Of a stretch of DNA of 36,587 nt, positions 916-3,915 are shown piece by piece. Location: IMG/VR virus record IMGVR_UViG_2703718784_000020. One strand, given 5' to 3'. The position numbers and the translations under genes are program-made. Source of the stretch: a virus (Duplodnaviria; Heunggongvirae; Uroviricota; Caudoviricetes). Below the pieces are notes generated by a model that was given only the letters and a program-made list of their open reading frames with translations, searched no databases and was not told the origin of the DNA. Every line of letters starts with the position of its first letter. Position 1 is the stretch's first letter.

Positions 916-1002
916 GCCCGGATGGTGGAATCGGTAGACACAAGGGATTTAAAATCCCTCGGCGTTCGCGCTGTGCGGGTTCAAGTCCCGCTCCGGGTAC
1001 CA
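916..1002 (+). tRNA. leuZ: tRNA-Leu (anticodon UAA), long variable arm
   Basis: 87-nt sequence GCCCGGATGGTGGAATCGGTAGACACAAGGGATTTAAAATCCC...CCGGGTACCA; class II tRNA with extra arm, anticodon TAA. Confidence 0.9.
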
Positions 1003-1043
1003 TGGGAAAGATAAGAATAAAATCAAAGCAATAAGCAGTGTCG

Positions 1044-1069
1044 TGAAACCACCTTCGGGTGGTTTTTTT
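1044..1069 (+). terminator. Rho-independent terminator after tRNA operon
   Basis: Hairpin GAAACCACCTTCGGGTGGTTT followed by T-run (ACCACC/GGTGGT stem, TTCG loop, TTTTTTTG). Confidence 0.6.
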
Positions 1070-1204
1070 GTATTTGTATTTTGTTAAATGGCGGTAAAGT
1101 GGCGATGGTGTGGCGATATGCAGAAATAATGATAGTACACGTCTGTTTAAACTCTAAGGGTGAAGCAAAACTCTCCTGCAACTCATCTGCATTTCGCATA
1201 TTGA

Positions 1205-1543: not shown

Positions 1544-1825
1544 ATGCGATGTGGTTTATTAATGGCAATCTGCCTTTGTTTGGTATCTTTTAGTGGGTAT
1601 GCAGCAACAGGAAAGTCAGATGCTCAGATCAAGAAAGAAATAATTAAAGAATCCATTGAATCTTATCCAGGCAATTGTGCGTGTCCGTATAATCATGCAA
1701 GGAATGGTAGTAGATGTGGTGGACGCAGTGCATATAGCCGTACTGGAGGGTATGACGTGGTATGTTATGAAAGTGATGTTACCGATGAAATGATCCGGCA
1801 ATGGAAGCAGGAGAATGCTGAGTAA
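1544..1825 (+). CDS. Small secreted cysteine-containing protein of unknown function
   Basis: ORF track 1430-1825; the likely start is the internal ATG at 1544 giving an N-terminal signal peptide (MRCGLLMAICLCLVSFSGYAATG) and a ~70-aa mature part with motif GNCACPYNHARNGSRCGGRSAYSR; AT-rich; family not recognised. Confidence 0.45.
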   Translation: MRCGLLMAICLCLVSFSGYAATGKSDAQIKKEIIKESIESYPGNCACPYNHARNGSRCGGRSAYSRTGGYDVVCYESDVTDEMIRQWKQENAE

Positions 1826-1871
1826 TCTCTTTTAACTGATTTGTTGTGCGAGCATTATGTGCAGTTAACGG

Positions 1872-1935
1872 CTCACTAGCTAGTGAGAGTTCCAAAAAGA
1901 AACCCCCGCAGTTTTTACGCTGCGGGGTTGTTATT
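1872..1935. terminator. Perfect 16-bp palindrome plus GC-rich hairpin; probable bidirectional terminator between convergent genes
   Basis: CTCACTAGCTAGTGAG (1872-1887) is a perfect palindrome; CCCCGCAG/CTGCGGGG stem at 1904-1927 is flanked by A-run on one side and T-rich run on the other, so it can terminate the minus-strand hok transcript and the plus-strand ORF. Confidence 0.5.
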
Positions 1936-2015
1936 CATGCCTATGAGATAGGGTGCCTTATCGGCCTTACCCTAGCAACCGATTGACGGGGAGTTGCCTC
2001 CCCGTCGCGGTTTCC

Positions 2016-2156
2016 TTACTGCTTACACTGTAAGAACGCCGCAAACTCCGCTCCCCAGAAGCTCATCCGTATTTCACACAGCGAACCGTGCAGCATCCAG
2101 ATGATGAGGATTACCGTCACGCAGAACGTGATGGCCGTAAGCGATTTTTGCGACAT
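2016..2156 (-). CDS. Hok/Gef family type I toxin (small membrane-active peptide)
   Basis: 46-codon ORF below the ORF-track size cutoff: MSQKSLTAITFCVTVILIIWMLHGSLCEIRMSFWGAEFAAFLQCKQ; hydrophobic N-terminal helix followed by the family signature SLCEIR and a C-terminal AAFL-C motif as in HokA; RBS AAAGGAG 8 nt upstream of the ATG at 2156. Confidence 0.7.
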   Translation of the reverse strand: MSQKSLTAITFCVTVILIIWMLHGSLCEIRMSFWGAEFAAFLQCKQ

Positions 2157-2205
2157 AGCGCTTGCTCCTTTGTTGGAGAGGCGCTAACCTATCACTTGCT
2201 AGGTT

Positions 2206-2370
2206 GACGGGTTAGGGCCTCGGTTAAACAGAAATGTTTTCCGGGGCCTTTCCACATCCGGCCTTCGGGTATTCCCTCCGACCATCAGCCGAAAGGCACC
2301 CGCACGTAATCTATCGCTTTTTTGTTACTCCGGCAATTCTGCCTGTTAATTCTGAGGTAAAGGCAAACTC
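2206..2370. repeat. Diverged direct repeat, copy 2; covers the hok 5' leader region and the last codons of ogr
   Basis: Homologous to 1205-1345 (see copy 1); located 50-190 nt upstream of the hok start codon on the minus strand, where mok/Sok-type control elements are expected. Confidence 0.5.
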
Positions 2371-2606
2371 ATCTGATTGTTTCCCCTGTGTGAAGCTGGC
2401 AGCTCATGCCACGGGATACCTTCTGATGAGTGAACGCCGGAGGCGTGTTTCGATGTGAATTTATGGAAAGCTTCCAGTGTTGAGAAGCATACGCCGCATT
2501 CCAGGTTGTTACACTGGTAATACTTTTGCCGCACGGTGTTTGAATCATTTTCCGGACGACTGGTGCGGATACGGGCAGATGCGCCACAAAGCGGACAACG
2601 GAACAT
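2346..2606 (-). CDS. ogr: Ogr/Delta family zinc-finger late transcription activator
   Basis: MFRCPLCGASARIRTSR...YYQCNNLECGVCF matches the C-x2-C...C-x4-C zinc finger and N-terminal MFxCPLC of P2 Ogr; strong RBS GGAGG before the ATG at 2606; the C-terminus is longer than P2 Ogr and reads into the repeat. Confidence 0.85.
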   Translation of the reverse strand: MFRCPLCGASARIRTSRPENDSNTVRQKYYQCNNLECGVCFSTLEAFHKFTSKHASGVHSSEGIPWHELPASHRGNNQMSLPLPQN

Positions 2607-2648: not shown

Positions 2649-3758
2649 TCACTCTGTTTCCGCTATCCATTCCGGGATTTTTGCTTCAAGCTCAAGCTGC
2701 GTGGTAAAGCCGCTGTTATCAATGGTGTGCTCGGCTTTTGCAATAATCCAGTCCTGATTGTCGATGTCATTTTTGAAGCCTGTCACCGTGCCATGCATTT
2801 CGGGATAGAGTTCTGCACGTCCACGCGCCAGCGTGATGGAAAATGATGCGGCTCCGCGTTGTAGTTGCTGCCACTTTGCCGCCGCTGCGCGTCTTGCTGC
2901 CTGCTCGTTCTGATAAGTCTTGCGTAACACAAACACATTGCCTTCCGCGCCTTCCATATAATCACCTTCACGGCTGCTGCTTTTCTCCTTTTTGGGTTTT
3001 GGCGGTTTACGGCGTTTCACGCTGACTTTTTTCTTTTTCCCGTAATTAAGATCAAGCCAGTAGGCGCGCACCCCCGTATACGCCTCGCGGTCAGCAATAC
3101 GGAACTGATGGCGATCGCCGCTGCTGCGTGTAATGGCGAACGAGGGCAACGGCTGGCCCTGTGCGTTCACGCCACCACCTGGCATGATGAATAACAGATT
3201 GCCGCTTTTTACCGTGGTGATTGCGCCCAGCATTTCCGCCATGCGCGTAAGGAAGGACATGTCGCTTTCTTCGGTCTGGTCGGCGTGGTCGATTTCGATA
3301 TCCATCAGCATTTCGCTGATTTGCGGTTTCAGACCATACCGATGAGCGATGGCGGATACCACACGCTCAACGGTCACATCATGCCAGGACACCTCACGTT
3401 TAACGTTAAATTCATCCCGAAAATCTGCGCTTCTGGCTGAAACAGTCAGCCTGTCCGGCGGTCCTTCGTGAGCGATTTCATCAACAATGTAAGTGCCTTT
3501 TTCTGTCAGCGGTTCTCCTTTCCAGCCAATGAGAACCGTCAGGCGCGCGCCCCGTGGCGGTAGCTGCAACTGACCATCCGCATCATCCAGCGTGATGGTG
3601 AGCTGGTCCGCCTCAAATCCCCGGTTGTCGGTCAGTGACAGGCTCATCAGGCGCTCTGCCACGCCTGACAGCGTTTTACCCTCCGCGAGAATATCAAAAT
3701 CCGGCATTTTCACGGGGTCTGTGCCCTGACTGAGCAATTGCATGGTGGTATCGGTCAT
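2649..3758 (-). CDS. D: Tail/baseplate hub protein gpD (late control gene D family)
   Basis: ORF track 2649-3890; the likely start is the ATG at 3758 (MTDTTMQLL...) preceded by GGAGGG; C-terminal region ...ELYPEMHGTVTGFKNDIDNQDWIIAKAEHTIDNSGFTTQLELE typical of phage GPD proteins. Confidence 0.85.
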   Translation of the reverse strand: MTDTTMQLLSQGTDPVKMPDFDILAEGKTLSGVAERLMSLSLTDNRGFEADQLTITLDDADGQLQLPPRGARLTVLIGWKGEPLTEKGTYIVDEIAHEGPPDRLTVSARSADFRDEFNVKREVSWHDVTVERVVSAIAHRYGLKPQISEMLMDIEIDHADQTEESDMSFLTRMAEMLGAITTVKSGNLLFIMPGGGVNAQGQPLPSFAITRSSGDRHQFRIADREAYTGVRAYWLDLNYGKKKKVSVKRRKPPKPKKEKSSSREGDYMEGAEGNVFVLRKTYQNEQAARRAAAAKWQQLQRGAASFSITLARGRAELYPEMHGTVTGFKNDIDNQDWIIAKAEHTIDNSGFTTQLELEAKIPEWIAETE

Positions 3759-3915
3759 CTGTTCCCTCCCTGTGCGGCATGGTCGCATGTGCGTGCGGAG
3801 GGGGGTACTGCTTTTTGTTGTCGCCGTGGCGGGAGAACGGCGCAGGGGTGAGATTACGCGCGTGGTGGGTGATGATTGTTGCCGAATCATTTAACGGATA
3901 CAAGGGGCTGAAGCT
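3759..3915. promoter_or_regulatory. Divergent intergenic region between D (minus) and FI (plus); presumed late promoters
   Basis: 157-bp noncoding gap between two divergently oriented late genes; no exact TGT-N12-ACA Ogr box found by eye, so the promoter positions are unresolved. Confidence 0.35.

Follow-up and report, generated by a model that had tools for sequence, protein, structure and literature searches.

A probable hok/sok-family toxin-antitoxin locus of a P88-like Escherichia coli prophage that appears to lack mok

Introduction

What is encoded immediately downstream of ogr at the end of a P2-like prophage, and if it is a hok gene how might its translation be controlled when no mok gene can be recognised? 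The question is raised by a locus in the viral record IMGVR_UViG_2703718784_000020 of IMG/VR (Caudoviricetes), the whole 36,587-nucleotide (nt) stretch of which is here called the window, and in which an original prediction made from the sequence alone had placed an unannotated Hok/Gef-family toxin gene. The locus is very probably a type I toxin-antitoxin module of the hok/sok family that a P88-like prophage bears as cargo; in it the canonical mok seems to be absent and control may, as a tentative reading, be exerted directly at the hok ribosome-binding site.

The hok locus is already known, annotated and widespread, and its toxin type has recently been characterised in a survey of Hok peptides in which hok was found to be enriched in prophages (Escalera-Maurer et al., bioRxiv 10.1101/2025.08.07.668861). 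Mok, Sok and the mRNA structure were deliberately left unanalysed in that survey (bioRxiv 10.1101/2025.08.07.668861), therefore the regulatory anatomy described here is not contained in it.

The toxin and its family

The 46-aa (amino acid) product of the open reading frame (ORF) at the hok position (Table 1) has a hydrophobic stretch at about residues 7-23, compatible with a single N-terminal helix, followed by SLCEIR at residues 25-30 and AAFLQC at residues 39-44. In keeping with the original prediction, which had rested on these features, the peptide belongs to Pfam HOK_GEF (PF01848; 30.1 bits against a gathering cut-off of 22, E 3.7e-7, residues 7-44 of 46) and is matched over its whole length by PHROG 251 ('MokW-like host killing', E 2.5e-23). 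BLASTP identified 43% identity to HokA of E. coli K-12 over 47 aa (E 2e-11), 39% to R1 Hok over 31 aa and 34% to HokW over 35 aa. Since the alignment with HokA is near-full-length, the likeness to Hok proteins exceeds the short SLCE motif; an alignment limited to the motif would, according to the original prediction, have spoken against it. The best NCBIfam match is the HokA equivalog NF007290 at 35.8 bits, below its cut-off of 89, with the general Hok subfamily model NF007279 at 23.6 bits against a cut-off of 73. Seven residues, M1, C16, T18, L30, C31, E32 and E41 in logo numbering, are kept in more than 80% of Hok peptides (bioRxiv 10.1101/2025.08.07.668861) and all seven have counterparts in the window peptide, namely M1, C12, T14, L26, C27, E28 and E37. 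The ORF is only 46 codons long and lies in a region rich in small ORFs, as would be expected of a chance ORF with a fortuitous SLCE motif, but this explanation is refuted by the matches of Pfam, PHROG and NCBIfam to Hok models, by the extent and significance of the HokA alignment, by the retention of the peptide in hundreds of genomes as well as in IMG/VR contigs and by flanking RNA elements that fit a hok/sok locus.

When Hok homologs were expressed from an arabinose-induced promoter 42 out of 45 were toxic, the exceptions being only 19_179, 60_1482 and 69_1540, and among the toxic homologs that were cloned are 72_1621, which differs from the window peptide by V15A, and 72_1589 of the Stx-phage type (preprint, bioRxiv 10.1101/2025.08.07.668861). 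In the same survey the peptide type is assigned to the high-abundance 'cluster 72' and HokA to cluster 93, and Table S2 gives GGAGC as the predicted Shine-Dalgarno sequence of 72_1621 (bioRxiv 10.1101/2025.08.07.668861). The strong ribosome-binding site foreseen in the original prediction corresponds to AAGGAG at 2170-2165. From its homology and from the toxicity reported for the one-residue variant the 46-aa product is predicted to be a Hok-family inner-membrane toxin with a single helix that would be restrained by Sok.

Distribution and location in the prophage

The description of the gene as unannotated held for the ORF track from which the original prediction was made; in public records RefSeq already calls the exact coding sequence as a 'Hok/Gef family protein'. 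When 5426 complete genomes of E. coli were searched with a 551-nt query (window 1850-2400), 1554 gave a match, which in 1205 covered at least 80% of the query; in E. coli STEC2018-607 (NZ_CP075697.1) the identity is 100%. The phages P88, Chuche, P884B11, Shae_phiSM, PhiR44_2 and 500465-2 carry the same locus beside ogr with 94-96% identity, the RefSeq phage records labelling the ogr-adjacent gene 'MokW-like host killing', while related copies with 73-87% identity occur in Stx2a phages, on IncI1 plasmids and next to serS and ykgO, the last two in plasmid-labelled records that are apparently chromosomal by gene content (one is also 1.2 Mb long). In IMG/VR 264 contigs encode a relative of the peptide. 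A scan of genome contigs returned six loci, three of them from organisms outside the Enterobacteriaceae that are possibly contaminants, and three places in the source genome match the hok locus.

STEC1012 has, beside serS, a tandem pair of hok loci of the same subfamily separated by about 470 nt (L005, 521-661 and 995-1135), with different toxins (MSQKSL... and MPQKTIIV...) and different Sok-target loops, and tandem pairs also occur in several IMG/VR contigs (L100, L102, L103). A divergent 45-aa Hok-like ORF (MSSNNIFILI... or MSYSNIFILI...WILYGSLCEL...) is found about 410 nt upstream of the main hok in L025 and at 765-902 in L009; its AT-rich leader is without the tac/ucb sequences of the subfamily, and the window has no copy of it. 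A few copies of the Stx-phage type (L157, L159, L155 and two further IMG/VR loci) have G-run frameshifts in hok, with GGGGAG changed to GGGGGAG or GGGGGGG and the C-termini altered or extended, representing either real decay or homopolymer sequencing errors.

The hok gene lies on the same strand as ogr with 189 bp between the end of ogr and the hok coding sequence, exactly as originally described. The original prediction had left open whether it was a module at the prophage end or a chromosomal hok locus next to the integration site. The window starts with pgsA and the genes for tRNA-Gly, tRNA-Cys and tRNA-Leu and ends at the exact stop codon of the phage integrase, and a 124-bp repeat, present at 948-1071, is found again past the integrase stop beside yecA in NZ_CP075697.1, placing the insertion site of the P88-like prophage between leuZ and yecA. 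The locus (1895-2336) falls within the prophage, about 0.8-1.3 kb from attL. Since the repeat lies outside the locus and free phage genomes (P88, Chuche, P884B11 and 500465-2 among them) carry the same locus, hok is phage cargo, and the alternative of a chromosomal locus is contradicted. The prophage, which is P88-like (Xuanwuvirus, P2-like) and inserted in leuZ of E. coli, carries the locus at its ogr-proximal end as an accessory element or 'moron'.

The hok mRNA and Sok

The structure of the hok transcript was studied in 49 non-redundant loci of the subfamily aligned from tac to fbi and by ViennaRNA folding of the full-length (2301..1895), truncated (nt 1-320) and nascent (nt 1-100) RNA of the window. 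The full model of Rfam sok RF01794 (1-157), in fact a model of the sense strand of the hok leader, aligns to 2301..2146 (E 1.5e-8), indicating a significant homolog that is outside the curated threshold. The 5' end carries GGGTGCC, invariant in 49 of 49 relatives, and is preceded by a putative promoter (Table 1) with aligned -10 hexamers in relatives of TAAATT, TAGAAT and TACATT and, in K-12 hokC, TATAAT. The downstream hairpin terminator that had been predicted is present at 1927-1904 (minus strand), where a hairpin rich in G+C leads into a run of U residues.

In the minimum free energy fold of the full-length RNA the two ends are joined, with nt 1-15 (tac) paired to nt 336-351 (fbi). This helix has 15 pairs, with 94.7% of alignment cells paired across the 49 loci, and five pairs show one-sided changes that preserve pairing, none being compensatory. 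The same fold buries the hok Shine-Dalgarno sequence in a hairpin with GCGCCUCUCC, a helix in which 93% of cells are paired, pairs ucb with GAGGCC in the closed leader hairpin and pairs the target loop at 2190-2209 with the 3' untranslated region at 1971-1983, with 5 of 12 pairs compensatory. Compensatory changes were also seen in 4 of the 9 pairs of the 3' stem-loop. Truncation is predicted to rearrange the leader such that tac pairs with ucb (10 pairs, 99.6% of cells paired) and a new hairpin forms between nt 81-92 and 113-124, in which GAGGCCCUAACC (2221-2210) is joined to GGUUAGCGCCUC (2189-2178). In the nascent RNA a 5' hairpin of nt 1-35 sequesters tac. The predicted folds thus contain the alternative tac/ucb and Shine-Dalgarno-arm/dcb pairings together with a metastable 5' hairpin.

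Conservation of tac and ucb is above that of the coding sequence (87%) and that of dcb and fbi is at least equal to it. Within the leader conservation is lowest in the target loop (mean majority fraction 0.81) and in the apical-loop segment of the Sok hairpin at 2222-2241, the hairpin loop of leader nt 60-79 (0.73), both with indels, while tac and ucb are invariant. Such variability of the loops is consistent with diversification of Sok/hok specificity and selection against cross-talk between co-resident copies.

On the opposite strand, the putative Sok promoter can be aligned with the sequence that precedes the annotated sokC of K-12; its -10 box is the same in all 49 loci and its spacer has 17 nt in 46 of them. 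The annotated ends of K-12 sokC map to window positions 2200 and 2257, and in the predicted Sok fold about 13 nt at the 5' end stay single-stranded, forming a tail with complementarity to the variable target loop, and a long hairpin comes next, as in SokC. At the level of sequence, an antisense RNA with its own promoter is therefore predicted. The original prediction had been unable to make out mok and Sok by eye and had pointed to the leader for fold-back elements; Sok can now be placed by homology from about 2197-2200 to about 2251-2257 on the plus strand and the fold-back elements have been recognised, while no canonical mok was found.

The absence of mok

The mok frame of R1 begins at nt 116, which is 58 nt ahead of hok, and both its start codon and its translation up to the hok Shine-Dalgarno sequence are required for Hok synthesis (PMC9841398). 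K-12 mokC is annotated at the equivalent position. In the window no ORF starting with ATG, GTG or TTG reaches the hok Shine-Dalgarno sequence in any of the three frames, so that no frame starts in the Sok target and overlaps hok, and 62 of 95 unique relatives are likewise without an ORF that leads from a start codon into hok. The site aligned with the mokC and R1 mok starts reads CCCUAAC, in a region that carries indels, and CCCUAAC can be accounted for by its pairing with GGUUAG, which is the Sok -10 box when read on the opposite strand. Two minus-strand ORFs considered as mok, at 2285..2199 (28 aa) and 2257..2192 (21 aa), were rejected, both ending before the hok Shine-Dalgarno sequence and being unconserved as ORFs. 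The label 'MokW-like' is the name of a PHROG family and not evidence for mok. From the sequences compared, canonical mok seems to be absent from the window locus and the 46-aa subfamily seems to have no conserved mok frame.

The AUG at 2257 is itself conserved, which is read as conservation at the RNA level because its nucleotides belong to the ucb/tac stem, and the ORF that it opens is probably not a mok equivalent. An R1-like translational coupling, in which this short ORF or one with an unconventional start would be translated into the hok site and Sok would block it, is nevertheless a rival explanation. In its favour one may point to the retention of the AUG in nearly all of 92 relatives, to the GAAGG that precedes it, to the position of the whole ORF inside the Sok-complementary stretch, to 9 of the 92 relatives that stay open in the R1-type mok frame to at least +80 (61-79 codons) and to the need for mok translation in Hok synthesis in R1. 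Against this the ORF varies from 1 to 79 codons in length and in frame, with stops from -100 to +134, such that roughly every third variant ends 51 nt or more ahead of the hok AUG, too distant to open the ribosome site, and an IncI1 plasmid copy reads ATG TAG. Moreover, pairing alone explains the conservation of the AUG and the next codons, which are nucleotides of the ucb/tac stem, and only these 9 of 92 relatives enter the R1-type mok frame, a read-through no greater than the chance expectation for 19 extra open codons. Coupling of this kind is accordingly considered unlikely.

The absence of mok also raises the possibility that the locus is a decayed, translationally silent relic like most of the chromosomal hok loci of K-12, with an intact ORF that became unexpressible when mok was lost. 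In R1 no Hok is made when mok has lost its start codon or contains early stops, and in K-12 insertion elements disrupt hokA and hokC, both of which are in keeping with a relic. The absence of mok is, however, common to the whole subfamily in phages, plasmids and chromosomes, in which the toxin ORF is intact, and the few relatives with frameshifted toxin ORFs are what true decay looks like. As described above, none of tac, ucb, dcb and fbi is less conserved than the coding sequence, the helices contain compensatory changes and the Sok -10 box does not vary, a pattern indicating that purifying selection still acts on a functional regulatory RNA; a relic is thus very improbable.

Control of the hok ribosome-binding site

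The cost of opening the hok ribosome-binding site (nt 129-150) was computed in kcal/mol for the full-length RNA, for the truncated RNA and for a truncated form in which the Sok target was held unpaired, with R100 (398 nt and 361 nt, coordinates taken from the literature) as an R1-type control. In the window the cost is 14.1 in the full-length RNA, falls to 8.1 on truncation and returns to 14.0 when the Sok target is blocked, the means of the 49 loci being 13.6, 9.0 and 13.7. The hok site of R100 by contrast stays at 20.4, 20.0 and 20.5, while its mok site falls from 11.4 in the full-length RNA to 7.7 in the truncated RNA. The hok site becomes cheaper to open on truncation in all 49 loci, and in 47 of them the cost goes up again by more than 1 kcal/mol when the Sok target is blocked. 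The mean per-base unpaired probability barely distinguishes the full-length from the truncated RNA, the region-opening energy being more informative. In these models the hok site of the subfamily behaves like the mok site of R1, which supports but does not prove direct control.

Since no mok frame is conserved, control would most likely be exerted directly on hok translation. It is possible, and suggested here tentatively on the basis of the folding models, that the 46-aa subfamily has dispensed with mok and that the switch has been rewired, such that 3' processing would open the hok site itself and Sok would silence it indirectly through refolding of dcb/anti-Shine-Dalgarno. According to this scheme, in the full-length mRNA tac and fbi would be paired, the leader closed and the hok ribosome-binding site held inside the anti-Shine-Dalgarno hairpin, until slow 3' trimming to the stem-loop at 1985-2006 removed fbi. 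Loss of fbi would allow tac to pair with ucb and GAGGCCCUAACC to pair with anti-Shine-Dalgarno/dcb, a refolding that would expose the Sok target loop and loosen the hok ribosome site. Where Sok is present it would pair with the leader and return the anti-Shine-Dalgarno sequence to the hok site, with cleavage by RNase III probable. Should Sok synthesis stop, through loss of the element or prophage induction, Hok would be made and the inner membrane damaged.

Several observations weigh against this account of the locus. Stop codons in R1 mok upstream of hok abolish Hok synthesis (PMC9841398), and if the R1 mok rule were valid here the locus would be translationally silent; alternatively, mok could be functionally replaced by the ORF at AUG 2257, which lies wholly under Sok. 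Toxicity is reported in a preprint, for a one-residue variant expressed from a foreign promoter. The score of the Rfam sok match, 47.3 bits, is below the gathering threshold of 59. A simple promoter scan of 1800-2650 flagged neither the hok nor the Sok promoter, the former matching 8 of 12 consensus positions, under the scan threshold, and the promoters are therefore placed by homology only. The invariance of tac and ucb means that their pairings receive no covariation support. The full-length structure has 90.5% of cells paired as against 37-43% in slid controls, and the truncated-leader structure 90.4% as against 30-54%, figures inflated by the derivation of the tested structures from the window sequence itself, and the 49 loci are closely related and not independent tests. 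Support at the exact locus consists of sequence and folding models. With these points taken into account, a hok/sok-family type I toxin-antitoxin locus borne as cargo by a P88-like prophage is still the strongly favoured reading of the whole.

Features of the locus and neighbouring genes

The locus accounts fully for the approximately 450 bp from ogr to the next ORF as one structured mRNA and an antisense RNA, the features of which are collected in Table 1.

Table 1. Features of the hok/sok locus and its surroundings in the window, in order of position.
Feature	Position	Strand	Remarks
attL direct repeat, 124 bp	948..1071	+	3' part of tRNA-Leu(taa) leuZ and terminator; prophage boundary
Intrinsic terminator of hok mRNA	1895..1927	-	8-bp stem, 7 G-C pairs, then GTTTCTTTTT
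Full-length hok mRNA, about 405 nt (inferred)	1895..2301	-	5' end from Rfam sok position 1; 3' end from terminator
fbi	1951..1966	-	GGCCGAUAAGGCACCC; predicted to pair with tac
Stable 3' stem-loop	1985..2006	-	likely 3' end of processed mRNA; 9 pairs, 99.8% of cells paired
hok toxin coding sequence	2016..2156	-	46 codons, MSQKSLTAITFCVTVILIIWMLHGSLCEIRMSFWGAEFAAFLQCKQ; RefSeq WP_000078920.1
Putative Sok promoter	2162..2190	+	-35 TTGCTC 2162-2167, 17-nt spacer, -10 TAACCT 2185-2190; weak consensus match
hok Shine-Dalgarno AAGGAG	2165..2170	-	read from sequence; 8 nt ahead of ATG
dcb / anti-Shine-Dalgarno	2175..2189	-	GGUUAGCGCCUCUCC; predicted to pair with hok Shine-Dalgarno (full-length) or 2221-2210 (truncated)
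Sok 5'-tail target loop, 20 nt	2190..2209	-	loop of the new hairpin in truncated fold
Upstream ORF, 21 codons	2192..2257	-	MWKGPGKHFCLTEALTRQPSK; conserved AUG at 2257; probably no mok equivalent
Sok antisense RNA, about 55-60 nt (predicted)	2197..2257	+	ends placed by homology, within a few nt
Counterpart of R1 mok Shine-Dalgarno arm	2210..2221	-	GAGGCCCUAACC; no start codon after
Closed leader hairpin	2216..2248	-	complementary to Sok terminator hairpin; full-length minimum free energy fold, Rfam sok alignment
ucb	2243..2253	-	GGAAAGGCCCC; 99% conserved
tac	2287..2301	-	GGGUGCCUUUCGGCU; 5' end; invariant in 49/49 loci
hok promoter -10 TAGATT (putative)	2308..2313	-	ends 6 nt ahead of inferred +1
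hok promoter -35 TTGCCG (putative)	2331..2336	-	read from sequence; homology with other hok loci; 17 nt to -10
ogr (late-gene activator)	2346..2606	-	Pfam Ogr_Delta E 5e-14; RefSeq annotation; upstream neighbour

Between att and hok lies a 93-aa ORF at 1544..1825 on the plus strand with a signal-peptide-like N-terminus and several cysteines, which matches PHROG 27544 (E 1.5e-59; function unassigned there) and no Pfam or NCBIfam family, and which looks like a second item of prophage cargo. Beyond ogr, at 2649-3890 on the minus strand, the window contains an intact 413-aa gpD-like ORF where the identical genome in RefSeq (L001, 3800-4600) has only a 266-aa 'VgrG/Pvc8 family' coding sequence and a small pseudogene fragment, which suggests an inconsistency of annotation.

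Possible roles and significance

Three roles may be put forward as candidates, namely retention of the prophage through the killing of cells that lose the element, assistance with lysis and release at induction, by analogy with hokW-sokW of Sp5, and exclusion of superinfecting phages, for which the analogy would be the interference of R1 hok/sok with T4 (as cited in Takada et al., 2021; PMC8621323).

The value for annotation is small, as a RefSeq call, a PHROG family and a toxic Hok cluster exist and only the absence of mok is of specialist interest, although the toxin module can now be assigned to the prophage rather than to the chromosome. If the rewired switch were true it would represent a common phage-borne branch of the best-studied RNA-controlled toxin family without translational coupling, and the absence of mok would be useful for the prediction and engineering of type I systems as well as to curators using the label 'MokW-like'. 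As far as the literature searched shows, a coupling-free variant of hok/sok is undescribed.

Comparison with known systems

At the protein level the closest systems are hardly distinguishable from that of the window. The protein is identical in RefSeq (WP_000078920.1) and in P88 and is one residue (V15A) from 72_1621 of cluster 72, and the P88-like phages have it in the same ogr-adjacent position with no difference in the protein.

Among the experimentally characterised systems hokW-sokW of the Stx2 prophage Sp5/933W is an experimentally proven pair of toxin and RNA antitoxin, the effect of which is an about two-fold higher release of phage following mitomycin C treatment (Takada et al., 2021; PMC8621323). 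Both loci are prophage-borne type I toxin-antitoxin systems of the hok/sok family, but HokW is a 51-aa, HokC/D-like peptide (MKQQKAM...) of a lambdoid phage while that of the window has 46 aa and belongs to a P2-like phage. Equivalence with hokW was therefore rejected despite the 'MokW-like' label, HokW being a different peptide. A second locus, of the 46-aa type and with 83% DNA identity, is present in some Stx2 phages.

In K-12, HokA is the closest named homolog and the ends of sokC map onto the predicted Sok, but hokA and hokC/mokC/sokC differ in having annotated mok genes and in their disruption by insertion elements.

The resemblance to hok/sok (parB) of R1 and R100 extends from the small membrane toxin and the antisense Sok encoded in the leader to the tac/fbi pairing, the ucb/dcb alternatives, the metastable 5' hairpin and the stable 3' stem-loop before fbi (for R1, PMC9841398), these RNA elements being predicted in the window. 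The R1/R100 toxin has 52 aa and is plasmid-borne, as against 46 aa and a prophage here, and R1 has a required mok whereas the window locus is without a mok ORF. In the folding models only the mok site of R100 responds, whereas in the window it is the hok site itself that is predicted to respond to truncation and to Sok.

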